Assembly (NCBI GenBank): GCA_963815115.1 | Contig: CAWFFN010000009.1 | Coordinates: 1,280,001 to 1,344,000 of the forward strand | Reading direction: 5' to 3' | Length of the DNA: 64,000 nucleotides | Origin: an uncultured delta proteobacterium | Lineage (GTDB): Bacteria; Desulfobacterota; Binatia; DP-6 | In this document: piece by piece, positions 12,793 to 30,650 of the stretch | Numbering within the stretch: position 1 is the first letter of the stretch | Layout: each line of letters begins with the position of its first letter | Notes under the pieces: model-generated | The model's input: only the letters and a program-made list of their open reading frames with translations | Database searches by the model: none | What the model was told of the DNA's origin: nothing | Made by a program: the position numbers and the translations under genes

Positions 12793-13964
12793 CGGGCAGC
12801 GAGGCGCTCGACGCCGCTCTCGAGCCGCGGCCGCTGTTCCGCGGCCCGCTCACCAACCAGCGGCCGCGCATCGTGCGCTCCTTCGGGAGCGATCCCTGGC
12901 TGGTCCTGGCGGTCGGAGCGCTCGTCTCGCTCGGTACGGTGATGGTCTTCAACGTCAGCTATTTCCCCGGTGGCGACGACTTCGGCGACCCGCTGCACTT
13001 CTTCCGCAAGCACCTGGTGTCGATCGCCATCGGCTTCGGGCTCTGTCTCCTCACCACACGGCTCGGCTCCGAGCGCTACCGCGCGCTCGCCTACCCGCTC
13101 CTCGCCGTCGCCGTGCTCGCCATGGCGGTGGTCCTGATCCCCGGCATCGGTGTCACCCGCAGCGGCGCGCGGCGCTGGCTCGCCCTGGGAGGCCTCACCT
13201 TCCAGCCCAGCGAGCTCGGCAAGTTCGCGCTCGTGCTCTACCTGGCGCGCTCCCTGGCGAAGCGCGGGGAACGCGTGCGCGAGCTCTGGCACGGCATGAT
13301 CCCGCACTGCCTGGTGGTGGGGCTGATCGCGCTGCTCTGCCTGCGCGAGCCCGATTTCGGGACGGCCGCGCTGAGCGGCGTCATCCTGGTGATGATGCTC
13401 TTCGCCGCCGGCGGACGGCTGGCGCACCTCGCCATCTTCGCCGCCGCCGCCGCGCCCGGCCTCGTCGCCCTCGCGGTGATGGCTCCGTACCGCTTCAGGC
13501 GGCTGAGCTCCTTCCTCGATTGCACGCGCGATGCGCTGGGCGACGGCTTCCAGCTCTGCCAGGCACTGATCGCCTTCGGCTCGGGTGGCGTGTCCGGGGT
13601 GGGGCTCGGGCAGGGCCAGCAGAAGATGTATTTCCTGCCGGCCGCGCACACCGACTTCATCTTCTCGGTCATCGGCGAGGAGCTCGGCCTGGTCGGCGCG
13701 GCGGCAGTGCTGACGCTGTTCGCCGTGGTCGCGGCCCGCGGGCTGCGCATCGCCGCCCGGCACCCCGACGCGTTCGGCGGTCTGCTCGCCTTCGGACTCA
13801 CCGTGCTCATCGTGGTGCAGGGGCTGCTCAACTTCGGGGTCGCCCTGGGCGTGCTGCCCACCAAGGGGCTCACGCTTCCCTTCGTCTCCTACGGCGGCTC
13901 GGCGATGATGGTGTCGCTCGCCGAGCTCGGCGTGCTCCTGGCGCTCGCCCGCGAATCGGGATGA
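12789..13964 (+). CDS. ftsW: SEDS peptidoglycan polymerase FtsW
   Basis: GARRW, FQPSELGK, PDFGT, LPAAHTDFIFSVIGEELG, KGLTLPFVSYGGS. Confidence 0.95.
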   Translation: MTGSEALDAALEPRPLFRGPLTNQRPRIVRSFGSDPWLVLAVGALVSLGTVMVFNVSYFPGGDDFGDPLHFFRKHLVSIAIGFGLCLLTTRLGSERYRALAYPLLAVAVLAMAVVLIPGIGVTRSGARRWLALGGLTFQPSELGKFALVLYLARSLAKRGERVRELWHGMIPHCLVVGLIALLCLREPDFGTAALSGVILVMMLFAAGGRLAHLAIFAAAAAPGLVALAVMAPYRFRRLSSFLDCTRDALGDGFQLCQALIAFGSGGVSGVGLGQGQQKMYFLPAAHTDFIFSVIGEELGLVGAAAVLTLFAVVAARGLRIAARHPDAFGGLLAFGLTVLIVVQGLLNFGVALGVLPTKGLTLPFVSYGGSAMMVSLAELGVLLALARESG

Positions 13965-15052
13965 ACGATGCGGGCGTCGACGTCCTGATCGCCGGCGGCG
14001 GGACCGGCGGGCACGTCTTCCCCGCCCTCGCCCTGGGCACCGAGCTGGCCGCGAGGGGGCTCGGCATCGCCTTCGTCGGCAGCCCGGGTGGCCTCGAGGC
14101 GCGCCTGGTGCCCGCGGCCGGCCAGCCGCTCCACCTGATCCCGGGCCGTCAGGTGCGGGGCGGCGGGATGCGCGGCGCCGCGGCGGGAGCCGTCGCGCTC
14201 TCCCGCGGACTCGGCAGCGCGCTCCGGGTGCTGCGGCGGCTGCGCCCGCGCCTCGTCGTCGGGGTCGGCGGCTACGCATCGGTCGCCGGCGTGCTGGCGG
14301 CCCGCCTCCGCCGCGTGCCGGTCGTACTCCTCGAGCAGAATGCCATCCCCGGAGCGGCCAACCGGGCGCTCGGGCGCATCGCCGAACGGATCTGCGTGGG
14401 CTTCGCCGACGCCTGCGGGTACTTTCCCGGGGGCAGGGCCGTGTACACCGGAAACCCGGTGCGGCCGGCCGTGCTGGCGGCACCCGCCCAGGTCCGTCGG
14501 GAGGGCGCCGGCCTCCTGGTGTTCGGTGGCAGCCAGGGGGCGCATCATCTGAACGAGGCCGCGGTCGCCGCCCTGGAGGACCTCGGGCCGGCGTCCCGGA
14601 CGCTTCGCATCACCCACCAGACCGGGGAGGCCGATCGGGCGTGGGTCGCCGACGCCTACGGCCGGCTCGGCCTCGATGCCCGGGTCGAGGCGTTCGTGGA
14701 CGACATGGGGTCGGCCTATGCCGCCGCCGACCTGGTGATCGCCCGGGCGGGCGCCATGAGCTGCGCCGAGATCACCGCCGTCGGGTTGCCGGCCGTGCTG
14801 GTCCCGTATCCCTTCGCCGCCGACGACCACCAGCGCCGCAACGGCGAGATCCTCGCCGCGGCCGGTGCCGCCCGCCTGATCCTCGATCGGGAGCTCGATG
14901 GGCCGCGGCTCGCCTCGGTGCTCCGTCCCCTCTTGGACGACCCCGCCACACGGGCCGAGATGGCCGCGCGCTCGCGTGCGTTCGGCCGGCCGCAGGCCGC
15001 GGCGCACGTCGCCCGGGTCTGCGCGGAGGTTCTCGAGCGCAGGTCTACTTGA
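13961..15052 (+). CDS. murG: Lipid II GlcNAc transferase
   Basis: GGGTGGHVFPALA, GGYAS, EQNAIPG, TGNPVR, GGSQGA, DHQRRN. Confidence 0.96.
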   Translation: MNDAGVDVLIAGGGTGGHVFPALALGTELAARGLGIAFVGSPGGLEARLVPAAGQPLHLIPGRQVRGGGMRGAAAGAVALSRGLGSALRVLRRLRPRLVVGVGGYASVAGVLAARLRRVPVVLLEQNAIPGAANRALGRIAERICVGFADACGYFPGGRAVYTGNPVRPAVLAAPAQVRREGAGLLVFGGSQGAHHLNEAAVAALEDLGPASRTLRITHQTGEADRAWVADAYGRLGLDARVEAFVDDMGSAYAAADLVIARAGAMSCAEITAVGLPAVLVPYPFAADDHQRRNGEILAAAGAARLILDRELDGPRLASVLRPLLDDPATRAEMAARSRAFGRPQAAAHVARVCAEVLERRST

Positions 15053-15146
15053 AGATCGCACGCTGCTTCTGTAAGTCCATCGCATTGTGGCTGGGCAGGT
15101 TGGGTGGACCGGATGGCCGCTCAGAGCGCTGCACGGAGTCACCGCT

Positions 15147-16547
15147 GTGAACGGACCGAAGCGGCGGGTGCACTTCGTCGGAATCGGCGGCATCGGAATG
15201 AGCGGCATCGCCGAGGTGCTGCTCACGCTCGGCTACAGCGTGTCGGGCTCCGACGTTCTGGAGAGCGAGACCGCGCGGCGACTCGAACGACTCGGCGCGC
15301 GCCTCCACATCGGCATCCACCACGCGGACAACGTCGACGAGAGCGTCGACGTCATCGTCATCTCCTCCGCGGTGACGTTCTCGAACCCGGAGGTGGTGCG
15401 GGCGCGCGATCTGAAGATCCCGGTGATTCCGCGCGCCGAGATGCTGGCCGAGCTGATGCGCATGAAGCACGGCATCGCCATCGCCGGCACCCACGGCAAG
15501 ACCACGACGACGTCCCTCGTCGGCACCGTGCTGCGCGAAGCCGGACGCGATCCCACCGTGGTGGTGGGCGGCAAGCTGCGCGCGCTCGGCACCAACGCGC
15601 GACTCGGACAGGGCGAGTACCTGGTCGCCGAGGCCGACGAGAGCGACGGCTCGTTCCTGCTCCTGTCGCCGATCATCGCCGTCGTCACCAACATCGATCC
15701 CGAGCATCTCGATCACTTCGGTGACATGGAGAAGGTGCGCGCGGCGTATCTCCAGTTCATCCAGCGTGTTCCCTTCTACGGTCTCGCCGTGCTGTGCGTC
15801 GACAACGTCAACGTGCGCGCGCTGCTGCCGTACGTGAACAAGCGCTTCGTCACCTACGGCACGTCGGCCGACGCCGACTGGCAGGCGCGCGAGCTGCGGG
15901 TGGAAGAGCTGGAAACCGTCTTCGAGGTCTGGCGCGCCGGGGAGCGCCTCGGTGTCGTGCGGCTGCACATGCCGGGCCGGCACCACGCCCTGAACGCGCT
16001 CGCCGCCATCGCGGTGGCCGACGACCTCGGCATTCCGTGGCGGCTCGCGGCGCATGCCCTCGAGGACTTCGGCGGCATCCATCGTCGCTTCGAGGTCCGC
16101 GGCGAGGAGCATGGCATCCTCGTGGTCGACGACTACGGCCATCACCCGGTGGAGATCCGGGCCACGCTGCGCGCCGCCCGCGAGGGCTTTGCGCGCCGGC
16201 TCGTGGTGGCATTCCAGCCGCACCGGTTCTCCCGCACGCGCGACCTCTTCGACGACTTCCTCGGCGCCTTCGACGACGCGGACCTCCTGCTGCTCACGGA
16301 GATCTACCCGGCCGGCGAGACGCCGGTCCCCGGCGTGACCGGCGACGCGCTCCACCAGGCGCTCAAGCGCCGCGGCCACCTCGACGTGCGCTGGGTGGCG
16401 GGGCGGGAGCGCCTCGCCGACGCCCTCCTCGAGCTCGTCCGTCCCGGCGACCTCGTGATCGTGCTCGGCGCCGGCGACATCTCCCGCACGGCGGACGAGT
16501 TCCTCGCCATGCTCCGGACCGGCGTCGGCATCCCGCAGATCCACTGA
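15147..16547 (+). CDS. murC: UDP-MurNAc:L-Ala ligase
   Basis: HFVGIGGIGMSGIA, GTHGKTTTTS, EADESDGSF, DDYGHHP, FQPHRFSRT; GTG start after GGAG. Confidence 0.96.
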   Translation: MNGPKRRVHFVGIGGIGMSGIAEVLLTLGYSVSGSDVLESETARRLERLGARLHIGIHHADNVDESVDVIVISSAVTFSNPEVVRARDLKIPVIPRAEMLAELMRMKHGIAIAGTHGKTTTTSLVGTVLREAGRDPTVVVGGKLRALGTNARLGQGEYLVAEADESDGSFLLLSPIIAVVTNIDPEHLDHFGDMEKVRAAYLQFIQRVPFYGLAVLCVDNVNVRALLPYVNKRFVTYGTSADADWQARELRVEELETVFEVWRAGERLGVVRLHMPGRHHALNALAAIAVADDLGIPWRLAAHALEDFGGIHRRFEVRGEEHGILVVDDYGHHPVEIRATLRAAREGFARRLVVAFQPHRFSRTRDLFDDFLGAFDDADLLLLTEIYPAGETPVPGVTGDALHQALKRRGHLDVRWVAGRERLADALLELVRPGDLVIVLGAGDISRTADEFLAMLRTGVGIPQIH

Positions 16548-16548
16548 C

Positions 16549-17457
16549 ATGTCGGTCGCCACCCTGCACCAGCGCCTCATCCGCGTCCTCGGCGACCGGG
16601 TGCGGGCCGGCGAGCCGCTCGCGCGCCATACCTCGTATCGCATCGGGGGCCCGGCCGATCTGCTGGCGCGTCCCGACTCGGTCGAGGAGCTCGGCAGCGT
16701 GCTGCGCGAGGCGAGCGCGGCCGGAGTGCGCGTCACGCTCCTCGGCGGCGGCTCGAACGTGCTCGTCGGCGACGGCGGCATGCGAGGCGTGGTGGTGAAG
16801 CTCGGTCGCGGCTTCCGCCGCGTCGAATGGAAGCCGGACGCGGTCCGCGCCGGCGCCGCCGTCCAGCTCGGCAGGCTCGCGCGCGAGAGCACGGCGCGCG
16901 GGCTCGCAGGTCTCGAGCACGCCGAGGGCATCCCGGGCACGGTGGGCGGAGCGCTCTTCATGAACGCCGGCGCCTACGGCGGGGAGGTGGCGAACGTCGC
17001 GGAAGCCGTCGACGGGCTCGACGCGAACGGCGACCCGCTGCGGCTGGGACGGGACGCTCTCGCGTTCACCTATCGCCGCGCCCACCTGCCCGCGGGCTTC
17101 GTGGTGACGGCGGTGACGTTCGGGCTGCGGCCCGATCAGCCGGACGCGGTGCGTGTGCGCCTGGAGGCGGTCCGCGCCCGGCGCGTCTCGAGTCAGCCCC
17201 AGGGACAGCCGAACGCCGGCTCGATCTTCAAGAACCCACCCGGCGCTCACGCCGGACGGCTGATCGAGGACGCCGGGCTGAAGGGCCGGCGGGTGGGCGG
17301 AGCGCGCTTCTCGGAGCGGCACGCGAACTTCATCGTGAACGACGGCCGGGCACGTGCGACGGACGTGCAGGTCCTGATGGCGATCGCCCAGCGGGCGGTG
17401 TGGGAGCGGAGCGGGGTATGGCTGGAGCCCGAGGTGCGGCTCGTCGGAAGCTGGTAG
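16549..17457 (+). CDS. murB: UDP-GlcNAc-enolpyruvate reductase
   Basis: RIGGPAD, GGGSNVL, GIPGTVGGALFMNAGAYG, AGSIFKNP, HANFIVN, LEPEV. Confidence 0.96.
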   Translation: MSVATLHQRLIRVLGDRVRAGEPLARHTSYRIGGPADLLARPDSVEELGSVLREASAAGVRVTLLGGGSNVLVGDGGMRGVVVKLGRGFRRVEWKPDAVRAGAAVQLGRLARESTARGLAGLEHAEGIPGTVGGALFMNAGAYGGEVANVAEAVDGLDANGDPLRLGRDALAFTYRRAHLPAGFVVTAVTFGLRPDQPDAVRVRLEAVRARRVSSQPQGQPNAGSIFKNPPGAHAGRLIEDAGLKGRRVGGARFSERHANFIVNDGRARATDVQVLMAIAQRAVWERSGVWLEPEVRLVGSW

Positions 17458-18314
17458 GCCGCCGCTTCCGCCGCCGTAATCGGGCCCGTCGGACGCGCCG
17501 GCTGCCGCGGGTGCCGTGGAAGGCGCTGCGGCTCGTCGGGTTGCTCGTCGCCCTGGCCGTCGCCGTGCCGCCGCTCCTGCGGACGGTGCGCAGCCACCCG
17601 TACTTCGCGCTGCGCGACGTCGTCATCCGCCACCACGGGCGGCTGCCGACGGCGGACCTGCGCGCCGCGCTCGGCTTCGCACCGGGGGACAACATCTGGA
17701 CGATCGATCTCGGGGCCGCCGAGGGGCGCCTGCGGTCGCTCGCGTGGGTGCGCTCCGTTTCCCTGCGCCGCGAGCTGCCCGACCGCGTCGTGGTGCGCGT
17801 GCGCGAGTACCGGCCGGCGGCGATCGTCGCCGTCGACGATCAGCCGCCCGAGCTCTTCTACGTCGCGGCCAACGGGCGCATCTTCGCGCCCGTCGGCGTC
17901 ACCGACGGGCGCGACCTGCCATACATCACGGGCCTCACGCGGGCGGATCTCGATGGCCGGCAGGGCTTCGGTCCCCGCGGCGTGCACCGGGCCCTGGGAT
18001 TGCTCCGTCTCGTCGGGCGCGAGCCGGGCGGGATCGGCCCCGTGTCCGAGGTGCACGTCTCCAACGACCACGGCATGACGCTCCTTCCGGTGCGACCGCC
18101 CATTCCCATCGTGCTCGGGTGGGGTGGGCTGCCCCGAAAGCTGGATCGGCTCGGCCGGGTGCTGCCGCTGTGGACCGGACGGGCGGCCGACGTGCGAGAG
18201 GTGAGCTGCATCTTCGAGGACCAGGTGATCGTGCGGATGCGCGCACCGCTGGCCCCGGAGACCCCCAAACCCGGGGGGACTCCGGGACGCCGCAAGCGCG
18301 CAGCGAGGGCGTGA
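17451..18314 (+). CDS. ftsQ: Cell division protein FtsQ/DivIB (start uncertain)
   Basis: Basic N-tail, one TM segment, POTRA-like WVRSVSLRRELPDRVVVRVRE, and LPYITG; lies between murB and ftsA. Confidence 0.85.
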   Translation: MVGRRFRRRNRARRTRRLPRVPWKALRLVGLLVALAVAVPPLLRTVRSHPYFALRDVVIRHHGRLPTADLRAALGFAPGDNIWTIDLGAAEGRLRSLAWVRSVSLRRELPDRVVVRVREYRPAAIVAVDDQPPELFYVAANGRIFAPVGVTDGRDLPYITGLTRADLDGRQGFGPRGVHRALGLLRLVGREPGGIGPVSEVHVSNDHGMTLLPVRPPIPIVLGWGGLPRKLDRLGRVLPLWTGRAADVREVSCIFEDQVIVRMRAPLAPETPKPGGTPGRRKRAARA

Positions 18315-18318
18315 GAGA

Positions 18319-19551
18319 ATGGCCAGGCGAAATCCGCTCGTGGTGGGCCTCGACGTGGGCACCTTCAAGGTCGGTGTCGTCGTTGCCGAGGTCGGCGAGC
18401 ACGGCATCGAGATCACGGGCATCGGCACCCAGGCTTCGACGGGACTCAAGAAGGGGACGGTGATCAACATCGACGCCACCGTGACGGCCATCCGCAAGGC
18501 CGTCGACGAGGCGGAGCTGATGGCCGGATGCGAGATACGCAGCGTCGTGGCAGGCTCGGCCGGCAGTCACATCAAGGGCTTCAACAGCCACGGGGTGGTC
18601 GCCGTGAAGAGCCGCGAGGTGGCGCAGGGCGACGTCGAGCGGGTGCACGAGGCCGCGCGGGCGATCGCGCTCCCCGTGGACCGCGAGGTCCTCCATGTCC
18701 TGGCGCAGGAGTTCATCGTCGACGATCAGGGCGGGGTGAAGGAGCCCATCGGGATGGCCGGGGTGCGGCTCGAGGCGCGCGTGCACATCGTGACCGGCTC
18801 CATCAGCTCGGGGCAGAACCTGATCAAGTGCTGCAACCGTGCCGGCCTGCACGTCCTGGACGTCCTCGGGAGTCCGCTCGCCGCCGCCGAGGCGGTGCTC
18901 ACGCCCGAGGAGCGCGAGCTGGGAGTGGCGCTGGTCGAGATCGGGGCGGGGACGACGTCCATGGTGGTCTTCCAGGGCGGCTCCATCCGTCACACCGCGG
19001 TCCTGCCGGTCGGCGGGGGCCACGTGACCAACGACCTCGCGGCCGCGCTGCGCACGCCGTTCGCCGAGGCCGAGCGCCTCAAGCAGCGGTGCGGCTCGGC
19101 GCTGGCGTTCGCCGCCGCCGCCGACCTCTCCGTGGAGGTCGCGGGCATCGGCGGGCGGCCGCCGCACAAGCTGTCGCAGCGTGCGCTCGCCGAGGTGATC
19201 GAGCCGCGATGCGAGGAGGTCCTCGCGCTGGTGCGCAGCGAGATCGAGCGGGCGGGAATGGCGGGTCATCTCACCTCCGGCGTCGTGCTCACCGGCGGCG
19301 GCGCGGTGCTCGGCGGCATGACGGACCTCGCGGAGCGCGTGTTTCGCACTCCGGCGCGCCTCGGTCTGCCGCTTCATCTCAGCGGTTTGGTTGACGTCGT
19401 TGCGAGTCCCATGTATTCGACTGCTGTCGGCCTCGTGCTGCACGGACTCAAGCGGCACGGACGCATGACGGCGCAAGAAGATTGGTCGGGGCTCGGCCCG
19501 CTCGAACGGGCACGGCACCGGGTGGTGAGCTGGCTGCGGGAGTTCTTCTGA
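18319..19551 (+). CDS. ftsA: Cell division protein FtsA
   Basis: [39 protein letters not shown]-terminal amphipathic WLREFF. Confidence 0.96.
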
Positions 19552-19612
19552 CCGTGTAGCGTCAGAGCGGGGCGGACGCCGGAAGGCAGAAGGCCGGAAG
19601 GTAGGTGGTGCG

Positions 19613-20833
19613 ATGGGCGAGGTGGTGGAGGCCGTCGAGGGTGCCCGGATCAAGGTGATCGGGGTCGGAGGTGGCGGAAGCAACGCGGTCAACACCATGA
19701 TCGCGGCCGGATTGCCGGGGGTCGACTTCCTCGCTGCCAACACCGACGCCCAGGCGCTGCGAACCAACCTCGCGCCGGTGAAGCTCCAGCTCGGCGAGAA
19801 GCTCACCCGCGGCCTCGGCGCCGGAGGCAATCCCGAGGTCGGCAAGCGCGCGGCCCTCGAGGACGTCGAGCGTATCGCCGAGCACCTCGGCGGCGCCGAC
19901 ATGATCTTCGTCACGGCGGGGATGGGCGGTGGTACGGGCACCGGAGCGGCCCCCGTGGTCGCGCGGGTGGGCAAGGAGCTCGGCTGCCTCACCGTGGGCG
20001 TGGTCACCAAGCCCTTCATGTTCGAGGGCAAACGGCGCTCGCGACAGGCCGATGACGGCCTGCGGGAGCTGAAAGCCAGCGTCGACACCCTCATCACCAT
20101 CCCCAACCAGCGCCTGCTCGGGATCGCCGGACGCAATTCGTCCATCATCGACACGTTCAAGAAGGCCGACGACGTGCTCCTCCAGGCGGTGCGCGGCATC
20201 GCCGACCTGATCACGGTGCACGGCCTCATCAACCTCGACTTTGCCGACGTGCGGGCGATCATGGCGGAGATGGGCATGGCCATGATGGGGGCGGCCGTCG
20301 CCACCGGCGACAACCGTGCGCTCGAGGCGGCACAGAAGGCAATCTCGAGCCCGCTGCTCGAGGAGGTCGCCATCAAGGGCGCCCGTGGAGTCCTCATCAA
20401 CATCACGGGTGGGCCCGACCTGACGCTGCACGAGGTGAACGAGGCGGCCACCTGCATCCAGGAGGAGGCCGACGAGGACGCCAACATCATCTTCGGCGCC
20501 GTGATCGACGAGTCGATGGGCGACGAGGTGCGCATCACGGTCATCGCGACCGGCTTCGGCGAGTCGGTAACGACCCGCCTGGTGCCGCCGCCCGTCGAGG
20601 CGAGCGACGAGTTGCGCGGGCGCGAGGTCGCGTCCGACGGCCGGCCGATCCGCCGCCTGGGCTTGCACGAGGTCGACGAGTACGAGCTCGACGTCCCCAC
20701 CTGGCAGCGCCGTCAGGCGGCCGCGAGCGCTCAGGCCGAGCGCGCGGCCAGCGGCAGGCGCACGCCAGCGAACGGCGCGGACGACGACCCGGACTTCGAC
20801 GTCCCCACCTTCCTGCGCCGCGGCGCGGAATAG
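19613..20833 (+). CDS. ftsZ: Cell division GTPase FtsZ
   Basis: [33 protein letters not shown]-terminal FDVPTFLRR. Confidence 0.98.
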
Positions 20834-22393: not shown

Positions 22394-23155
22394 TCAGGCG
22401 ACGGGCGGGGGGGACGGCTCCGGCTCCGGCCCCGCATAGAGGCCCTTGCGGTCGGCCTGCCGGATCCGCAGCAGGTCGACCAGCATGCGCCACGCGTCGG
22501 CGACGGGACGCACCTTGCTGTCGGGGTCGTCCACCCAGGTCACCGGAACCTCCGCCACCCGGAGGCCGAGCCTGCGCGCGATCCAGAGTACCTCGACGTC
22601 GAAGCCGAACTGCTCGATGCGCTGGCGGAGGAAGATGCGCTCCGCCGCGCCCGCCGAGAACAGCTTGAAGCCGCACTGGGTGTCGGCGATGCCGGGAACG
22701 GCCAGGCGGCGCACGCACCAGTTGAAGCCCCGACCCATCGCCTGCCGCCACCAGGGCTGCGGGACGTCGACCCGGGAGCCCGGGAGTCGGCGCGACCCGA
22801 TGGCGACGTCGTGTCCGGCTGCGATCGCCGCCATCAGGCGTTCGACCTCCTCGATCGGGGTCGACAGGTCGGCATCCGAGAACAGCCGCAGGTCGCCGCG
22901 CGCGGCCAGCATGCCGCGGCGGACGCAGTGGCCCTTGCCGCGGTTCTTGGGGTCGTCGAGCACGTGCAGCACCGTCCGCCCGGTCCGGACTTCTCCGATC
23001 ACCTCGACGGTGCGATCGCGCGAGCCGTCGACGACGACCAGTATCTCGGACGTCCACGGGCGGGTCCCGAGGTACGCGACGATGCGCTCGAGCGTCGGGC
23101 CGATCCGGCGTTCCTCGTCGTACGCCGGGATGACCACGCTCAGGTCGATCGGCAC
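22394..23155 (-). CDS. GT2 polyprenyl-phosphate glycosyltransferase (Dol-P-Glc synthase-like)
   Basis: LSVVIPAYDEERRI, VDGSRD, NRGKG, DADLST, DTQCGFKLF, FDVEVL. Confidence 0.9.
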   Translation of the reverse strand: MPIDLSVVIPAYDEERRIGPTLERIVAYLGTRPWTSEILVVVDGSRDRTVEVIGEVRTGRTVLHVLDDPKNRGKGHCVRRGMLAARGDLRLFSDADLSTPIEEVERLMAAIAAGHDVAIGSRRLPGSRVDVPQPWWRQAMGRGFNWCVRRLAVPGIADTQCGFKLFSAGAAERIFLRQRIEQFGFDVEVLWIARRLGLRVAEVPVTWVDDPDSKVRPVADAWRMLVDLLRIRQADRKGLYAGPEPEPSPPPVA

Positions 23156-23242: not shown

Positions 23243-23917
23243 TCACCAGGGGCGGGTCCGGCCGTCGTAGCCCAGGAACTTGCCGGAATCGGCCACCTTC
23301 AGCCCTTCCAGCAGCGCGACCATTCCCCCGACCGTCTCCTTCGGGTCGAGCGGCGCCTGCTCACCGCCCATGTCGGTGCGGTTCCAGCCCGGGTCGAGCG
23401 AGACGACCGTGAAGCCGTCGCCGGCCAGCTCCTCGTGCATGAGCACCGTCAGCATGTTCAGGGCCGCCTTGCTGCAGCAGTAGGCGTAGGAGAACCCTCC
23501 CGGCGTGCCGGCGAGGCTTCCGAGTCCGCTGGACACGTTGGCGATCGTCTTCCGCTTGCCGCGACCGAGCACGGGCAGCAGCGCCCTGGTCAGCAGAGCC
23601 AGCCCGAAGACGTTGGTGCGAAACACGTGCTCGAAGGTGTCGGAGGTGATCGACCGCACGGAGGCATCCCTGGCGCCGACCCCGGCATTGTTGATCAGCA
23701 GGTCGATGGGTTCGTCGAGCGAGCGCGCGAAGGCCTCGAACGTCTCGGGGCGTGTGACGTCGAGCCGCACCACCTTCGCCCCGGCCCGTGCAGCGGATGC
23801 GGCGCCGTCCGGATCGCGTACCGCCGCGATCACGGTGTGGCCGCGCCGCAGAAGCTGCTGCACGAACTCCGCCCCGAGCCCTCGCGATGCTCCGGTCACC
23901 AGGTATCCGTCGCCCAT
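23243..23917 (-). CDS. Short-chain dehydrogenase/reductase (CsgA/C-factor-like subfamily)
   Basis: VTGASRGLG, LINNAG, SSGLGS, YCCSKAALNM (YxxxK), PGWNRTDMGG. Confidence 0.88.
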   Translation of the reverse strand: MGDGYLVTGASRGLGAEFVQQLLRRGHTVIAAVRDPDGAASAARAGAKVVRLDVTRPETFEAFARSLDEPIDLLINNAGVGARDASVRSITSDTFEHVFRTNVFGLALLTRALLPVLGRGKRKTIANVSSGLGSLAGTPGGFSYAYCCSKAALNMLTVLMHEELAGDGFTVVSLDPGWNRTDMGGEQAPLDPKETVGGMVALLEGLKVADSGKFLGYDGRTRPW

Positions 23918-24096
23918 GACGATCCGGGTATCGAGGCAGGCGAGCTGGAACAAGCGGCGCCCGGCCGGGATGCTCGCGTCTCGGCCGCTCGACGGCGAAC
24001 CCTCCGGCCCGCTACATCCGGGACCGGCCGTTTCCATGTACCGGCATCTGCGCGTCGTTTGACGTTGCGGCACGACGCCGGCCGCTGCCCCGCGCG

Positions 24097-24651
24097 CTAC
24101 TTCGCGGGCGCGACGAAGAGACCGGGTCGCGCGATCGCCTTGCCGCCCTCCAGGGTCGGCGCGTCGAGCACCTCGAGGATGCGGAGCTCGGTGGTGATCG
24201 GCACGTCCGCACACTCGCGCGGCAGGCAGGCGGCCGGCAGCACGGACCCCTTGCAGCGTCCGCCCCTGCAGGCGAGCGTCCCGTTCAGCGACGGCGTCTC
24301 GATCTGGAGCCCGTCGAGCGGGCAGTCGCCCGCGTCCGAGCCGAAGGTGGTGAGATTGGTGACCTCGACGGCGAGGCTGCCGCCGTACGGCGCGCCGTCC
24401 CGGGTGACGCCGACGAGCTTCACCGTGCCGCCCGAGGTCTCCGACGGCTTGCCGGTCTTCGGGCAGGTGGGCGCCGGCTCGCGGGCGCTGGTCAGCTGGG
24501 CCACGCCGCTGCGAAATGCGAACGCGGGCTGGCATGCGACCGCACCCGCGCACTGCGCCTGGACCAGCGCAAGCACCAGGCCGGCCGGCTTCGCGCTCGC
24601 CGTTCCCGGGAGCGCCGCCAGCACCAGCACGATCGGCAGTCCGTGTCGCAT
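24097..24651 (-). CDS. Secreted cysteine-rich protein of unknown function (184 aa, 8 Cys)
   Basis: GAGGAGGG SD, signal peptide MRHGLPIVLVLAALPGTASA-K, GC3-rich codons; starts 17 nt after the lysyl oxidase stop. Confidence 0.75.
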   Translation of the reverse strand: MRHGLPIVLVLAALPGTASAKPAGLVLALVQAQCAGAVACQPAFAFRSGVAQLTSAREPAPTCPKTGKPSETSGGTVKLVGVTRDGAPYGGSLAVEVTNLTTFGSDAGDCPLDGLQIETPSLNGTLACRGGRCKGSVLPAACLPRECADVPITTELRILEVLDAPTLEGGKAIARPGLFVAPAK

Positions 24652-24668
24652 GCTTCCCTCCTCGCGTC

Positions 24669-25700
24669 TCATGGCACGATCCGGAACGGCGCGCTGTCGC
24701 GCGCGGTGCGCGCGAAGGCGCCGGCGTCGGTGTCGGGCGCCCCCTTCACCTGTGCCCAGAGCACCACCCGGAGCCGGGCCTCGTCCGTGACGGCGTCGGC
24801 GGGGACGGTCCAGACGAAGGCGTGCTGCTTCGGACCCGATGTCGCGCCGACGTATTGCCAGCTCTGTCCGCGGTCGCGCGAGAACTGCACCTCGACGAAT
24901 CGGACGTCGCCCTTGACGCGCTTTCGCCAGGCGATCTTCAGGCGCTTGCCGGCGCGCACCTTCTTGCGATGCGGCGCGAGCAGCGTGAGCTTGGGGGTGG
25001 CGTTCGCCGGAGTCCCGGTCATGGTCACGGGGACGCAGCCCTGGTCGTTCGTGGGATCGCCATCGGGCAGCAGGCGTGCCGTGTTGATGAAGACGCACAG
25101 GTCGTAGTCGCCGGTCGCCGGCAGGTCGGTGATGTCGATCCACTGGCAGGCGAGGTTGCTGGGGTAGAGGTCGCCCCAGCCCACCTGGACTCCTTGCGTG
25201 TTGAGGCCGTTCGGGTTGCATCCGTAGCGGCGCGCGTCGGGGGCGCTGTCCACCGCCTTCTTCGTGTCCTCGATGCAGAAGGAGCGCTTCTGCCCGAGCA
25301 GCAGGACGTCCGCCGCTCCGCGCTGGCGAAGCTCGTAGCGGGCGAAGGTCTCGAAGTGGAAGTGCTTGTGGCAGGCGCTGTAGACCCACTTGGGGGTGCC
25401 GTCCGGGAGGAGCTCGTTCGGATCGGGCGTGCCGACCACCAGATCCGCCGTGCCCTGGTTGATCGCGAACACGCTGAAGCGCAGCAGCTTGCGCACTCCG
25501 GGTCCAGTCACGCAGAGGTCGGCGGGCTTGAGCTCACATGCCAGGGGGTCGTTCGGATCGAACAGCTGCACGTCGTACTGCACGGACGACGCCAGGAGGT
25601 CGGTATCGAGGCGCAGGTCGGGCAGCCCCTGCGCGGCGGCGGGAGTCCGCAGCCCGAACGCGCACAGCACGGCGAGGAGGCCGCCAGCAGTGACCTTCAT
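24669..25700 (-). CDS. Secreted lysyl oxidase-family copper/LTQ amine oxidase with a C-terminal basic beta-rich domain
   Basis: Signal peptide; GLPDL, LLRF...NQGTAD, WVYSACHKHFH, GQKRSFCIEDT, TQG...DLY, CQWIDITDL, all colinear with the LOX catalytic domain. Confidence 0.92.
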   Translation of the reverse strand: MKVTAGGLLAVLCAFGLRTPAAAQGLPDLRLDTDLLASSVQYDVQLFDPNDPLACELKPADLCVTGPGVRKLLRFSVFAINQGTADLVVGTPDPNELLPDGTPKWVYSACHKHFHFETFARYELRQRGAADVLLLGQKRSFCIEDTKKAVDSAPDARRYGCNPNGLNTQGVQVGWGDLYPSNLACQWIDITDLPATGDYDLCVFINTARLLPDGDPTNDQGCVPVTMTGTPANATPKLTLLAPHRKKVRAGKRLKIAWRKRVKGDVRFVEVQFSRDRGQSWQYVGATSGPKQHAFVWTVPADAVTDEARLRVVLWAQVKGAPDTDAGAFARTARDSAPFRIVP

Positions 25701-25818
25701 CCGGTGCTCGACCTAGCCGACCGGGGCCTCGCGGAGCAAGCGTTTCCACCGTCTCCGGAGCGATTCGGGTCCGCCTTGAGGATGCGGGAGGCGGCGAGTA
25801 AGGTCCGAGCCGTCCTCC

Positions 25819-27540
25819 ATGCCCAATCCAGCCGATCGCCTCGCCCGCCTCGCCGCCGAACGCCGGCTCTTCGTGCCCGGGCCGCGCGGCCCGCTCGCGG
25901 TGTGCCTCGTCTATCCCAACACCTATGCCGTCGGCATGGGCAACCTGGGTTTCCAGGCCGTGCTCCGCATCCTGTCGGACGATCCACACGTCACCGTCGA
26001 CCGCGCTTTCCTGCCCGACGGGCCGCGCTCCGGGTGGCCGCGTACGCTGCGCGCGCTGGAGAGCGAGCGCGCGGTGGGCGACTTCGACGTCCTCGCCTTC
26101 TCGATCTCGTTCGAGACCGACTACCTGCACGTGCTCGACGTCCTCGCCCTCGCCGGCATGCCGCTGCGCCGGGAGGCGCGCGGACCGGGTGCACCGCTCG
26201 TGGTCGCGGGCGGTCCCGCGACGTTCCTCAATCCCGAGCCGCTGGCCGAGTTCGTCGATCTGTTCCTCGTCGGCGAAGCCGAGGAGATGCTGCCGGAGTT
26301 CCTCGCTCGAGCCGCCGCGGGGTCGCCGGGACGCGATGCGCTCCTCGAGCGCACCGAGGACGTCGTCGGCGCCTATCGGCCGGATCGCTTCCATCCCCGC
26401 TACGACGGCGATGGCACGCTCGCGGCGGTCGAGTACGATGGACCGTTCGAGCCCCGGGTCGTGCGGCGCTACCTGGCGCAGCTCGATCGTCGCGAGACCG
26501 CCTCGCAGATCCTGAGCCCCGACGCCGTCTTCGGGGACATGTTCCTGGTCGAGGGCAGCCGCGGCTGCGAGTGGGGCTGCCGCTTCTGCGCCGCCGGCTT
26601 CATGTACCGTCCGGTGCGCTATCGCAGCCCGGCCAGCCTGCGCCGGAGCGTCGCGCGCGGGCTGGGCGAGCGGCGCACCATCGGGCTGGTGGGCGCCGAG
26701 ATGGCGAGCCAGCCGGGCATCGCCGGGCTCTGCCAGGAGATCGCGGCGGCGGGCGGACGCGGCTCGCCCTCGTCCTTGAAGGCCGATCTCATCACCCCCG
26801 CGCTCGCGCAGGCGTTGGGGAGCGGGGGCAACCGCTCGGTCACCGTCGCACCCGAGGCCGGATCGGAGCGCCTGCGCCGGGTGATCAACAAGAACCTCAC
26901 CGAGGGCGACGTGCTGCGTGCCGCCGAGTGGCTGGTCGGCGGCGGTGTCGAGGCGCTCAAGCTCTACGTCATGGTGGGCCTCCCGACGGAGACCGAGGCC
27001 GACGTCGACGCCATCACCGAGCTGGTACGAGCGGTCCGCGGGCGCCTGATGGGGGGCGGGCGGCCGAAGGTCGGACGTATCCTGGTCTCGATCAACCCGT
27101 TCGTGCCGAAGCCGTGGACGCCGTTCCAGTGGGAGCCGATGGAAGACCTCGCGTCGCTCAAGCGAAAGCTCGTGCGCGTGCGCCGGCAGCTGAGCGCCGT
27201 CCCCGCCGTCCAGGTCGAGACCGAGAGCCCCCGCGAGGGATACCTGCAGACCCTGCTGTCGCGCGGAGACCGGCGCGTGGCCGAGCTGCTCGAGCGCATC
27301 CACCTGGACCCGAAGGGGTGGTGGCCCCTGATGCGCGCGCTGCGCGGCGGGCGCGAGGACCTCGTCGACCCCGACCGCTTCGTGCACCGCGCCTACGCCA
27401 CCGGCGAGCTGCTGCCGTGGGATTTCATCGACAACCTCGTCGAGAAGCGCTACCTCGCGGCGGAGCGGCGGAAGGCGTACGTCGAGCTCCAGACGCCGCC
27501 CTGCGACACCCACACCTGCCACACCTGCGGGGCGTGCTGA
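25819..27540 (+). CDS. Radical SAM protein with B12-binding-like N-terminus (TIGR03960-like)
   Basis: YPNTYAVGMGNLG, RGCEWGCRFC (CxxxCxxC), APEAGSERLRRVINK, FVPKPWTPFQW, LPWDFID, terminal CxxxxCxxCGAC. Confidence 0.88.
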   Translation: MPNPADRLARLAAERRLFVPGPRGPLAVCLVYPNTYAVGMGNLGFQAVLRILSDDPHVTVDRAFLPDGPRSGWPRTLRALESERAVGDFDVLAFSISFETDYLHVLDVLALAGMPLRREARGPGAPLVVAGGPATFLNPEPLAEFVDLFLVGEAEEMLPEFLARAAAGSPGRDALLERTEDVVGAYRPDRFHPRYDGDGTLAAVEYDGPFEPRVVRRYLAQLDRRETASQILSPDAVFGDMFLVEGSRGCEWGCRFCAAGFMYRPVRYRSPASLRRSVARGLGERRTIGLVGAEMASQPGIAGLCQEIAAAGGRGSPSSLKADLITPALAQALGSGGNRSVTVAPEAGSERLRRVINKNLTEGDVLRAAEWLVGGGVEALKLYVMVGLPTETEADVDAITELVRAVRGRLMGGGRPKVGRILVSINPFVPKPWTPFQWEPMEDLASLKRKLVRVRRQLSAVPAVQVETESPREGYLQTLLSRGDRRVAELLERIHLDPKGWWPLMRALRGGREDLVDPDRFVHRAYATGELLPWDFIDNLVEKRYLAAERRKAYVELQTPPCDTHTCHTCGAC

Positions 27541-28587: not shown

Positions 28588-29718
28588 CTACGTCCCCAGG
28601 CCGCGGACGGCGACGGGCGCCGCGCCGGGCTCCGGCAGGAGGTAGGTCGCGAGCGACTCGAGGTCGGCCAGCGACCCGGGCGGCGTCGCGAGCAGGGGCA
28701 CCGTGGCGAGGAGCGGTGCGGCCGCCGTCCGCAGCAGCGGCGCGAGGGTGGCTTCCTGGCGTGCGGCGAGGGTCCGGAGATCCGCGACCGCGCGCGCGAG
28801 CCGCCCGGCGAGCGCGTCCGAGACGCCGGGAATCGGCGCCGTCTCCGCTGCCTCGGAGCCGTAGAGGTTTCGCGGGAGGACGCGGTTGACGAGCACCCCG
28901 TGCACGCGCAGGTGCACGGCGGCGAGCGCGCGCGCCAGCTCCTCGGTCTCGTCGGTGAGGCGCGGCTCGGGAGCCGTCACCAGGAGCAGCGAGGTCGCGT
29001 CGCTCTTGAGCAGCGTGTCGACCTCCTGCACGCGGATGCGCAACGCCCCGGTCAGGTCCTCGATGACGCGGACGAACTCACCGATCTCGCGCACCAGGCC
29101 GATGCCGGTGAAGCGCTCGAGGCCCCGCAGCACACCACCGAGGACGAGATGCGCGAGGCGCGAACCCGCGCCCGGCAGGATGCTGGTCGGATCCTTCAGG
29201 ATGGAGAAAGCGCGCGAGTCGAGCAGCCGCAGCAGGCGGCGTGGGGCGTCGAGAAAATCGACCGCGTGGCGCGCCGGCGGCGTGTCGACGACCAGGAGAT
29301 CGTAGTCGCCGGTCTCGGCGAGTCGGAGCACGGTCTCGACCGCCATGTACTCGGCGCTGCCGGCCAGGGTGCCCGAGAGGTTCTGGTACAGGCGATTGTC
29401 GAGGACGCGGCGCGCCTGCTCCGGTGTCGAGGCGAGGCCGACGACGAGCTCGTCGAAGGTCCGCTTCACGTCGAGCAGCATGGCGTCGAGCCGGGCGTGG
29501 CTTCCCGGCAGGGGAACGCGCCGCGGGCGGCCGTCGAGCTCGTCCAGGCCGAGCGCGTCGCGCAGGCGCCGGGCCGGGTCGACGGTCAGCACGGCCGTGC
29601 GCCGGCCCCGGCGGGCGGCGGCGACGGCGAGCGCCGAGGCCGTCGTGGTCTTGCCGACGCCCCCGCTGCCGACGCAGAGCACCAGCCGGCGGCCGTCGAG
29701 AATCTCGGAGAGGGTCAT
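28588..29718 (-). CDS. ArsA/Get3-family ATPase (Rv3680/BagB-like)
   Basis: CVGSGGVGKTTT, TVDPARRL, AMLLDVKRTFD, NRLYQNLS, EYMA, VDTPPARHAVDFLDAP. Confidence 0.9.
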   Translation of the reverse strand: MTLSEILDGRRLVLCVGSGGVGKTTTASALAVAAARRGRRTAVLTVDPARRLRDALGLDELDGRPRRVPLPGSHARLDAMLLDVKRTFDELVVGLASTPEQARRVLDNRLYQNLSGTLAGSAEYMAVETVLRLAETGDYDLLVVDTPPARHAVDFLDAPRRLLRLLDSRAFSILKDPTSILPGAGSRLAHLVLGGVLRGLERFTGIGLVREIGEFVRVIEDLTGALRIRVQEVDTLLKSDATSLLLVTAPEPRLTDETEELARALAAVHLRVHGVLVNRVLPRNLYGSEAAETAPIPGVSDALAGRLARAVADLRTLAARQEATLAPLLRTAAAPLLATVPLLATPPGSLADLESLATYLLPEPGAAPVAVRGLGT

Positions 29719-30650
29719 GCCGCGAGCCGGGCCGCCTGTGTCAGCTCGCGCGCGAGCGTCTCGATGCCGCCGTCGGCCTCCGGACCGGCGAAGAGGAACG
29801 GCAGCCGCACCGGCGCCGCCCCCAGTGCGCGCCGGAGCGCCTTCACCTGGGCGGCGGCTTCGCGCCGGCGCTCGAGCAGGAAGCGCGCGGCCGCGATCTG
29901 GGGATGATGCTCCGCGCTCGCCTCGAGGCGTGCGATCGCCGCCTCGTCCGCGCGCGTGAAGTGCCGCGCCGGCATCGCGTTGACGATGGCCGGCGCAACC
30001 GGCAACCCCAGCCGTCGCACCAGCTCGCGGTGAAGCTCGATGGTCTCGCGCACCGCCAGCTCCTCGGGTGTGGTCACCAGGCAGACGAGCGTCGTCGCCG
30101 GATCGGCGAGCCGGGCCCCCATGGTGCGTAACGTCTCTGCGACCGGCCCGAGATGCGCGAGGGCTCCGAGCGTCTTCGGCGCGGCGAGGAGCGGAAGCGA
30201 GTGGCCGGATGCCGGCGCGTCCACCACGATGACGTCGTACACACGCCGCCCGAGGCGGCGCGCGTCGAGCCACGCCGTGAGCTGCTGCAGCACGAGAAAC
30301 TCGGGCAGCCCCGGCGCGGCCGCGGCAAGCACCTGGAAGCTGGTGCTCTCGAGCAGGCGCCGGCTGAGCATGCGAAGCCGGAGTACGCGATGGACGAACG
30401 CCTCGAGGGCGGCCTCGGGCTCCACCGCGGCAGCGGAGAGTCCCGGCATCACCGTGCGCGGCTCCAGGCCCAGGCGTCCGGCGCCGAGGAGGGAGCCCAG
30501 CCGCCCGGCGCCGACCTCGACGGCGAGGACCCGCCGGTGCGCCGCGACGCTCGCTCTCGCCAGGGCGGCCGCGACGGCGCTTTTTCCCACTCCGCCCTTG
30601 CCGGTCACCACGACCAGCCGCTGCGAGCCGAGAGGCAGACGCGCGGGCAC
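29715..30650 (-). CDS. ArsA/Get3-family ATPase (Rv3679/BagA-like)
   Basis: VTGKGGVGKS, AVEV in place of DPA, AAPGLPE, VDAPASGH, TTPEELAVRET; ATGA overlap with the partner gene. Confidence 0.88.
   Translation of the reverse strand: MPARLPLGSQRLVVVTGKGGVGKSAVAAALARASVAAHRRVLAVEVGAGRLGSLLGAGRLGLEPRTVMPGLSAAAVEPEAALEAFVHRVLRLRMLSRRLLESTSFQVLAAAAPGLPEFLVLQQLTAWLDARRLGRRVYDVIVVDAPASGHSLPLLAAPKTLGALAHLGPVAETLRTMGARLADPATTLVCLVTTPEELAVRETIELHRELVRRLGLPVAPAIVNAMPARHFTRADEAAIARLEASAEHHPQIAAARFLLERRREAAAQVKALRRALGAAPVRLPFLFAGPEADGGIETLARELTQAARLAA

Follow-up and report, generated by a model that had tools for sequence, protein, structure and literature searches.

A 64-kb window of contig CAWFFN010000009.1 (assembly GCA_963815115.1), from an uncultured Binatia-type soil bacterium, carries on its reverse strand a lysyl oxidase (LOX) family gene that is followed directly by a second gene for an apparently exported protein, here called the partner; 'the window' denotes this whole stretch of DNA throughout. 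We propose that the LOX-family protein is an exported, active amine oxidase with a copper/lysine tyrosylquinone (Cu/LTQ) centre that works together with its co-encoded partner, and we put the probability of this reading at about 0.7. The original prediction, made from the nucleotide sequence of the window, had described a secreted, animal-like lysyl oxidase; it mentioned neither the protein's C-terminal domain nor the conserved partner gene downstream.

Prokaryotic LOX are already known as a class and have been in print since 2015 (PMC4448552). LOX genes have been reported from five phyla of bacteria and from two groups of archaea, most of them coding for the LOX domain alone (Grau-Bove et al., 2015, PMC4448552). 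Once refolded in the presence of Cu2+, the LOX of the archaeon Haloterrigena turkmenica (HTU-LOX) shows activity of relaxed specificity that 3-aminopropionitrile inhibits (Pestov et al., 2019, PMC6452851). The native roles of the prokaryotic enzymes have been called 'enigmatic' or 'cryptic' (PMC4448552; PMC6452851). Taken alone, the LOX gene of the window is an ordinary member of an annotated family, and the added value lies in a distinct subtype with a partner. The literature searched, which did not extend to supplements (Files S5 and S6 of PMC4448552 among them), contained neither a report of a partner gene or operon for LOX nor a description of a subtype in which a basic Fn3-like domain is combined with a dedicated, relocating partner. 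A LOX clade that keeps one co-exported protein while its other neighbours change could reveal what prokaryotic LOX do. Furthermore, a compact LOX of ~35 kDa without propeptide or glycosylation might lend itself to studies of how LTQ forms; according to the structural report on LOXL2 (PMC5899467), a LOX structure in the active state was not available.

Catalytic domain, active site and export

The LOX open reading frame (ORF) starts with an ATG at 25700, and an in-frame stop codon lies four codons upstream. The GC content at its third codon positions (GC3) is 0.91, like that of the other real genes in the window, the composition of which is 71-75% GC. A six-frame search of the 6.9-Mb host genome (G000) returned the same PF01186 match and no other, and the gene is thus single-copy. 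The ORF lies where the original prediction had placed it, and the translation contains all of the motifs that it quoted, namely GLPDL at residues 25-29, LLRF at 72-75, NQGTAD at 81-86, WVYSACHKHFH at 105-115, GQKRSFCIEDT at 136-146 and DLYPSNLACQWIDITDL at 177-193. Its codon coordinates for His111 to His115, Lys138 and Tyr179 (Table 1) are exact when counted from 25700. The LOXL2 equivalents in the alignment with PDB entry 5ZE3 agree in pattern with the human LOX strings that it set beside these motifs.

The Pfam Lysyl_oxidase hidden Markov model (HMM), proposed as a check, matched the protein (PF01186, E 9.2e-26; 91.2 bits, with the gathering cut-off at 20.4) over residues 68-228, corresponding to profile positions 50-195 of 204. 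A phmmer search of all PDB sequences gave human LOXL2 (5ZE3) as its sole match, with E 2e-18 over LOX residues 23-218, and on these two E values the family assignment lies far beyond chance. In a large protein collection 339 proteins matched at E<=0.001; PF01186 was present in all of the best 120 of them, most of which are 315-361 residues long. A search of NCBIfam with the LOX protein returned 0 families. A topaquinone copper amine oxidase was considered and rejected, since no family model for it matched; at E<=1 Pfam gave Lysyl_oxidase and three sub-threshold β-sandwich or repeat families.

A structure model was calculated with AlphaFold2 from an alignment of 38 LOX relatives (45-77% identity to the query), which also served for all of the LOX conservation counts given below. 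The model has a mean predicted local distance difference test score (pLDDT) of 92 and a predicted TM score (pTM) of 0.87. Foldseek returned 5ZE3 as the best PDB match (E 5.9e-14, 211 columns, root-mean-square deviation 3.4 Å). The superposition on LOXL2 that had been suggested also succeeded: a VIA search over 48,161 chains placed 5ZE3 first, with Z 20.8, an r.m.s. deviation of 2.3 Å over 187 aligned residues and 30% identity; the row below it (Z 11.6) matches the C-terminal domain instead. The window gene thus very probably encodes a genuine member of the LOX family whose active site is intact.

The predicted Cu/LTQ residues proved to be intact. The three histidines expected to bind copper (His111, His113 and His115) and the lysine and tyrosine expected to form LTQ (Lys138 and Tyr179) are invariant in 38/38 relatives, and each has its counterpart in LOXL2 (Table 1; LOXL2 numbering uses a chain-index offset of 317, checked against the residue numbers in PMC5899467). 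In the precursor state of LOXL2, Tyr689, the equivalent of Tyr179, is the fourth metal ligand (PMC5899467). The original prediction had held that a lysine or tyrosine far from the copper site in a model would speak against the enzyme; this yardstick is invalid, since Lys653 lies 16.6 Å from Tyr689 in the LOXL2 crystal structure (PMC5899467).

The Ca ligands of LOXL2 are Asp549, Leu550, Glu722, Asp724, Asn727 and Asn728 (PMC5899467), and their equivalents in the alignment with 5ZE3 are Asp28, Leu29, Asp213, Asp215, Asn218 and Asp219. Among the 38 relatives, position 28 is Asp in 34 and Asn in 4, position 29 is Leu in all 38, position 213 is Asp in 11 and Glu in 27, position 215 is Asp in 22, Asn in 8 and another residue in 8, position 218 is Asn in 30, and position 219 is Asp in 24 and Asn in 14. 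The putative calcium-site ligands are thus kept or conservatively replaced in the bacterial clade. The LOXL2 catalytic domain has five disulfides (PMC5899467), and the expectation that several cysteines of the window protein sit at LOX disulfide positions holds for three of the five. Cys55, Cys63, Cys110, Cys142, Cys161 and Cys185 are invariant in 38/38 relatives; LOXL2 cysteines 625, 657, 673 and 695 map exactly onto Cys110, Cys142, Cys161 and Cys185, and Cys573 and Cys579 map approximately (within 2-6 alignment columns) onto Cys55 and Cys63. The expectation fails for the 663-685 disulfide, the positions of which are non-cysteine in 38/38 relatives, and the 732-746 pair falls outside the alignment. 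A clade-specific pair is formed by Cys202 and Cys222, which covary perfectly (both cysteine in 25/38, neither in 13/38 and a single one in 0/38). The number of disulfides varies within the LOX family (PMC6452851); the pairings of the window protein are predicted from its conserved cysteine positions. Because the catalytic residues and the Ca/disulfide framework are unchanged or only conservatively replaced in 38/38 relatives, selection appears to have acted on catalysis. The HMM match, the superposition and the intact Cu/LTQ residues together make a catalytically competent LOX-family amine oxidase well supported by the sequence.

The N-terminus of the protein resembles a signal peptide and has neither a lipobox nor a twin-arginine motif on inspection. 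In the model, residues 1-20 have a pLDDT of 55-60 and form a lone helix at residues 7-16. A variable hydrophobic N-terminus precedes the conserved xLPDL in 37/38 relatives; the remaining one (P0028) begins at MPDL. It is probable that this segment is a Sec-type signal cleaved by signal peptidase I, which would account for export from the cytoplasm only. Of the claim that the protein is an active extracellular cross-linking or amine-oxidizing enzyme, the LOX-family identity and the intact residues stand; the location would be beyond the cytoplasm, in the periplasm, at the surface or in the medium, and the enzyme may act either as a cross-linker of proteins or on small amines.

The description of the protein as animal-like is misleading, as it is only 28-30% identical to LOXL2, compared with 33-44% (best tblastn segment) to LOX from Burkholderiales, Verrucomicrobiota and Myxococcota. 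LOX domains from Anaerolineales and actinobacteria are 27-34% identical over the best segment. Among named genomes, the closest relatives (74-77% identity) come from metagenome-assembled genomes labelled 'uncultured delta proteobacterium' or Thermodesulfobacteriota, and those labelled Candidatus Binatia or Binatus show 44-56% identity; one homologue (P0091) is named 'lysyl oxidase family protein [Candidatus Binatia bacterium]'. The window type of LOX occurs in 11 of 24 same-family genomes. The gene shows the codon bias of its host and belongs to a bacterial clade.

The window protein shares with human LOXL2 and the animal LOX-LOXL enzymes the fold, the HxHxH motif, the LTQ lysine and tyrosine, the Ca-site positions, the cysteine positions of three of five disulfides and predicted export. 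It differs from LOXL2 in having no SRCR domains and no propeptide, in its own 202-222 pair, in its Fn3-like C-terminus and in being encoded in a two-gene cassette; collagen and elastin, the substrates of animal LOX, are not expected for it. With HTU-LOX, to judge from the published description rather than from the sequence, it has in common a prokaryotic origin, a hydrophobic N-terminal signal and conserved copper and LTQ residues (PMC6452851). HTU-LOX has an N-terminal autoinhibitory stretch, whereas the catalytic domain of the window protein starts right after the signal; the latter also adds a C-terminal domain, and the abstract and Discussion of PMC6452851 do not mention a partner gene. 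A catalytic domain of the same kind, 27-44% identical over the best segment, occurs in the LOX of Sphaerotilus and other Burkholderiales, of Verrucomicrobiota, Myxococcota and Nocardioides and in other Binatia paralogues.

The C-terminal domain and the partner protein

Beyond the catalytic domain, the LOX protein continues into a cysteine-free β-sandwich that resembles Fn3, PKD and carbohydrate-binding module (CBM) domains and is modelled with a pLDDT of 94-98. Its best VIA matches are 9kvu_A (Z 11.6) and 3pe9_A (Z 11.3), followed by many Fn3, PKD and CBM rows at Z 8.5-10.4; Pfam gave sub-threshold matches only (GEVED, Reelin_subrepeat-B and BNR). The domain is very basic, with an isoelectric point (pI) of 11.4 in the window, and the charge is split in the same way in all 38 relatives, with a pI of 4.3-5.0 for the catalytic domain against 10.3-12.0 for the C-terminal domain. 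The BNR/Asp-box match, at residues 272-282, marks an Asp-box-like motif in which Ser274 is kept in 37/38 relatives and Asp276 and Gly278 in 38/38, while position 281 is Trp, Tyr or Phe. This basic Fn3-like domain is a new, subtype-specific feature of LOX, and its charge suggests that it most likely tethers the enzyme to an anionic polymer or surface.

The partner gene begins immediately downstream: the LOX stop codon (24671..24669) is followed by a gap of 17 nt that contains an AGGAGG ribosome-binding site, and then by the partner ATG at 24651. GGAGG-like sites precede the starts of the partner orthologues in most related loci. From the spacing, the two genes are presumably co-transcribed. The partner has a signal-peptide-like N-terminus, of a type that is conserved in its orthologues, and in the model of the protein, which is all-β with a pLDDT of 80, residues 1-5 and 10-22 fall below 50. 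It has eight cysteines that are invariant in 35/35 aligned relatives. No His, Met or Lys is invariant in these 35 relatives, and the mature window protein contains 0 His and 0 Met; the best lysine columns are Lys65 (29/35) and Lys134 (27/35), and most lysine columns alternate with Arg.

The partner has no recognizable family. A Pfam scan gave no family even at E<=10, Foldseek with the model gave no PDB match at E<=0.001, a partner profile searched against PDB sequences gave a chance match only (E 4.3) and an Atlas structure look-up returned only unnamed clusters, below 0.9. In an exhaustive VIA search with the model the best rows were weak (Z 5.0-5.8, r.m.s. deviation 3.5-4.3 Å), and a Z below 8 can reflect a merely common arrangement; ten of the 11 top rows were Cu,Zn superoxide dismutases (SODs), SOD-like proteins, the SOD1-CCS complex and CrdA. 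These proteins and the partner are of similar size and may share an all-β, Greek-key-like sandwich, at that weak Z, but the partner shows no sequence relation to them and has eight invariant cysteines in place of the metal-binding histidines. A Cu,Zn SOD-like identity by sequence was rejected on the Pfam result, on the absence of metal-ligand histidines and on the PDB profile E value of 4.3.

The partner belongs to a small family. A word-indexed collection yielded 48 proteins at E<=0.001; none of them has a Pfam domain, and wherever a source name is given it reads 'hypothetical protein'. Against 1.84 billion representatives, the partner profile matched 45 clusters at E<=0.001, a number that fell to 34 at 1e-10 and to 14 at 1e-30. 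Eight longer distant hits were scanned with Pfam: two have a DUF11-Pro/Thr linker-partner domain arrangement, two have a Pro/Thr linker followed by the domain and two are tandem duplications. Because distant relatives stand behind DUF11 and Pro/Thr linkers or in tandem, the partner domain would appear to be an exported or surface-displayed module. A complex prediction for the mature LOX (residues 25-343) and the mature partner (residues 21-184), both entered as alignments, scored 0.00 twice; run without controls, it carries no weight either way.

In one other genome (G037, L081:3311-4588, reverse strand), two tandem genes for proteins of 207 and 216 residues encode distant relatives of the partner domain away from any LOX. 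Both proteins begin with a signal-peptide-like segment, contain a stretch rich in Lys and Arg and carry the motif ...SPDCxSGGxGCP at the C-terminus, and the pair of genes is flanked by a carboxyltransferase gene and by DUF1214 and acyl-CoA-synthetase-like genes.

Linkage, phylogeny and relocation of the pair

Linkage was assessed with three profile HMMs, one each for the catalytic domain, for the C-terminal domain and for the partner, which were run over the six-frame ORFs of 72 loci fetched with flanks of 1.5-4 kb, shorter at contig ends, and with same-place duplicates removed. A LOX with the C-terminal domain occurs in 13 distinct loci, the window included, and the partner lies directly downstream on the same strand in 11 of these 13. 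In the fetched flanks of the other bacterial LOX loci (39 distinct), none of which has the basic C-terminal domain, there were no partner hits (0/39). Strong partner hits (E<=1e-72) were found in 11 of 41 genomes, each beside the best LOX match, which was of the C-terminal-domain type in 11/11; ten of these genomes are among the 24 of the same family, and the eleventh is the host genome G000. Among the 41 genomes, none without a C-terminal-domain LOX had a strong partner hit; a weak hit was obtained in G037 (1.5e-12) and a marginal one in G029 (5e-4).

A maximum-likelihood tree was built from 52 distinct catalytic domains of these loci, after 20 rows had been dropped (12 duplicates and 8 matches covering <140 profile positions). 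In this tree, which has several long branches and was midpoint-rooted for drawing only, the 13 LOX with the C-terminal domain group together among the bacterial LOX domains with a support of 92/91. One of the two loci without a partner (L014) branches first, and the other 12 form a branch with a support of 97/94, in which the second partner-less locus (L009) is nested among partner-bearing rows. Because of this nested position, the absence of the partner in L009 suggests secondary loss.

The neighbours of the pair vary from locus to locus and include a phospholipase C (L022), a LuxR-type response regulator (L023), DUF1329 (L024), TetR together with a short-chain dehydrogenase/reductase (SDR; L026) and an SDR together with a cytochrome P450 (L028 and L029). 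Upstream of LOX, six loci (L013, L025 and L028-L031) have orthologous SDRs that are 59-93% identical to one another and only 30-36% identical to the SDR of the window. A P450 gene stands on the far side within the fetched flank in L025, L028 and L029, and in L030 only part of a P450 is matched, where the fetched locus ends; the P450 query covered the loci other than L031 and L013. The host genome of the window contains the corresponding site elsewhere, on contig 5 (L079, about 261544-263600), where an SDR orthologue (68% identity) is followed at once by a P450 orthologue with nothing between them. Because this genome keeps the syntenic SDR-P450 site empty, the pair has moved as a unit. LOX and its partner are thus gained and kept as one and also relocate together, though the partner can be lost at times. 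A search of the window for flanking repeats that would point to a mobile element gave only matches of 12-23 nt inside coding DNA, none of them bracketing the cassette.

The gene models of one of these loci require a comment. In L006 (= L025, genome G010) a frame break interrupts the C-terminal domain of LOX at about L025:4673-5010, with overlapping HMM pieces in different frames; it is either a frameshift or an assembly error, and the genome was scored as 58% complete. A 578-residue database protein from the same contig (P0015) reads as an SDR-LOX fusion but was rejected as one, as its middle part looks out of frame and the same locus has separate SDR and LOX genes.

Proposed function, competing explanations and neighbouring genes

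We infer export, cofactor formation, activity, co-transcription and the roles of the partner and the C-terminal domain from the features above, and the chemistry by analogy with LOXL2 (PMC5899467) and HTU-LOX (PMC6452851). LOX would be exported by Sec, after which its acidic catalytic domain would bind Cu(II) via His111, His113 and His115. Copper and O2 would then oxidize Tyr179, and addition of the Lys138 side chain would give LTQ. The mature enzyme would deaminate primary amines, whether a protein lysine side chain or free or polymeric amines, to aldehydes, NH3 and H2O2. A Ca site and four disulfides (55-110, 63-185, 142-161 and 202-222) would stabilize the fold, and the basic Fn3-like C-terminal domain would anchor the enzyme to an anionic polymer or surface. 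LOX would be co-transcribed with the co-exported eight-cysteine β-sandwich protein, and the two would form a functional pair.

What the partner does within this pair can be stated only tentatively. Our leading guess, although we hold it at clearly less than even odds, is that it is the protein substrate or a scaffold of LOX; a maturation or copper-delivery factor seems rather unlikely and an inhibitor in trans improbable, and the remainder of our expectation falls to another role or none. In its full form, which we find somewhat doubtful, the substrate proposal has the partner as native substrate or scaffold and LOX, held by its Fn3-like domain, cross-linking partner lysines into a covalent envelope or matrix layer. 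If the partner is indeed the substrate, it would be the first native substrate defined for a prokaryotic LOX, and its cross-linking would parallel in bacteria that of collagen and elastin.

Several observations weigh against a functional LOX-partner pair. L009 (= L029, genome G007, 99% complete) has the order SDR-LOX-P450 with a gap of 38 nt where the partner would stand, and there is no partner genome-wide. The LOX of L014 (G038) also has no partner. G013 contains a second LOX copy (C8, 48645-49526, 44% identity over residues 12-318), while its sole partner match is on C79, so that this copy is probably a third partner-less case of this type of LOX. The distant partner-like tandem genes of G037 stand apart from any LOX. 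An obligate role for the partner is weakened because these two or three lineages keep LOX without it, a fixed-site substrate model is weakened because the partner has no invariant Lys, and a copper-chaperone model is weakened because neither His nor Met is invariant in the partner and both are missing from the mature window protein.

The same observations bear on the alternatives. LOX could be an exported amine oxidase of broad specificity whose targets are small or polymeric amines and which serves to scavenge nitrogen or to inactivate amine compounds, with no protein cross-linking and no role of the partner as substrate. We consider this a possibility worth keeping in view, though not a likely one. 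HTU-LOX, the only assayed prokaryotic LOX that was found, accepts many primary amines as substrates, among them glycine, taurine, aminoglycosides and polymyxin (PMC6452851); the lack of an invariant lysine in the partner and the persistence of LOX without it in G007 and G038 are in line with such an activity, as are the aldehyde dehydrogenase and SDRs near LOX in the window and the orthologous SDR upstream in six loci. However, the aldehyde dehydrogenase, family 2 glycosyltransferase (GT2) and SDR of the window are not recurrent beside LOX, and because the orthologous SDR sits away from LOX in G000, no aldehyde-handling gene is consistently linked to it. An enzyme of small amines would also leave the jointly relocating LOX-partner pairing and the basic Fn3-like domain unexplained. 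The partner might instead help LOX to mature, by delivering copper or by assisting its folding, in analogy to fibulin-4 for animal LOX or to the tyrosinase caddie proteins. Fibulin-4 promotes the transfer of copper to animal LOX (PMC7688322), and the window LOX, which has no propeptide and would be exported unfolded by Sec, would have to acquire its copper outside the cytoplasm. Copper-handling Greek-key barrels make up nearly all of the best structural rows of the partner, weak as these are (Z 5.0-5.8). Yet a Z below 8 may be a common arrangement and there is no sequence relation to Sod_Cu or any PDB chain; no His or Met is invariant, the eight invariant cysteines are more simply taken as four disulfides in an exported protein, and LOX is retained without the partner in two genomes. 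We regard a maturation factor as the less probable of these two alternatives.

The remaining explanations concern LOX itself. The family is best known in animals and inter-kingdom LOX transfers have been proposed (PMC4448552; PMC6452851), but a recent transfer of the gene from an animal or another eukaryote is already contradicted and in our view extremely improbable: the GC3 of 0.91 matches the host, the identity to LOXL2 is only 28-30%, this type of LOX is present in 11/24 same-family genomes and its 13 copies group among bacterial domains (92/91), and the architecture is un-animal, with no SRCR domain or propeptide, a bacterial Fn3-like domain and an operon partner. That the protein is a non-catalytic LOX-like protein which merely binds a ligand is hardly more credible, since the five catalytic residues, the Ca site and the disulfide framework are invariant or conservatively kept in 38/38 relatives down to 45% identity. 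An exported, active amine oxidase that acts with its partner accordingly remains the reading that we prefer.

Table 1. Features of the LOX cassette and its surroundings (window coordinates; strand '.' = not assigned)
Feature	Position	Strand	Basis or remark
LOX-family gene P0001	24669..25700	-	ORF, 343 residues + stop; PF01186; single copy
LOX signal-peptide-like N-terminus, residues 1-23 (MK, hydrophobic core, AAA|QG)	25632..25700	-	Inspection
Catalytic LOX domain, residues 24-231, acidic (pI 4.6)	25008..25631	-	Pfam, 5ZE3 phmmer and VIA matches
H111-x-H113-x-H115, putative copper-binding histidines (= LOXL2 His626/628/630)	25356..25370	-	5ZE3 alignment; 38/38 invariant
Lys138, putative LTQ precursor lysine (= LOXL2 Lys653)	25287..25289	-	5ZE3 alignment; 38/38 invariant
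Tyr179, putative LTQ precursor tyrosine (= LOXL2 Tyr689)	25164..25166	-	5ZE3 alignment; 38/38 invariant
C-terminal Fn3/PKD/CBM-like β-sandwich, residues 232-343, without cysteine	24672..25007	-	Model, structural matches
Asp-box-like motif S274-R-D276-R-G278-Q-S-W281	24858..24881	-	Sub-threshold BNR/Asp-box match
AGGAGG ribosome-binding site, 5 nt ahead of partner ATG	24657..24662	-	Sequence, inside the 17-nt gap
Partner gene P0122, 184 residues + stop, predicted exported all-β protein	24097..24651	-	Translation; 8 invariant Cys
Partner signal-peptide-like N-terminus, residues 1-20 (MRHGLPIVLVLAALPGTASA|KP)	24592..24651	-	Inspection; type conserved in orthologues
Divergent intergenic region, presumed promoter region	25701..25818	.	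118 bp between LOX and radical-SAM gene; gene coordinates
Radical-SAM protein with Radical_SAM_N2 N-terminal domain	25819-27540	+	118 bp from LOX, divergent
SDR, GT2 and aldehyde dehydrogenase downstream of the cassette	23243-~23917, 22394-23155, 20886-~22340	-	Gene calls
dcw (division/cell-wall) cluster	12621-20833	+	LOX cassette just beyond its end

A scan of 23800-25900 for promoter and terminator consensus sequences returned 0 promoter-like and 0 terminator-like sites, with shuffled sequences giving about as few; such a scan is uninformative in DNA of 71% GC, where a sigma-70 consensus is not expected. No RNA dataset containing 24097-25820 is listed, the listed datasets being soil and freshwater metagenome DNA, and only one soil or freshwater metagenome dataset holds at least half of the sampled words from that interval.

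Neither the radical-SAM gene nor the SDR, GT2 and aldehyde dehydrogenase genes of the window recur beside LOX in the 12 related loci tested, and an operon of LOX with the last three was rejected on this ground. The SDR that stands upstream of LOX in six loci differs from that of the window, and its orthologue in G000 lies on another contig. Aldehyde-handling enzymes beside an aldehyde-forming oxidase are suggestive, yet the arrangement is not conserved in those 12 loci. The dcw cluster comprises genes for a Mur ligase (15075-16547), MurB (16459-17457), FtsA (18229-19551) and FtsZ (19529-20833). On the other side, an ArsA/ParA-like ATPase gene (29715-30650, reverse strand) has no apparent link to the LOX cassette.

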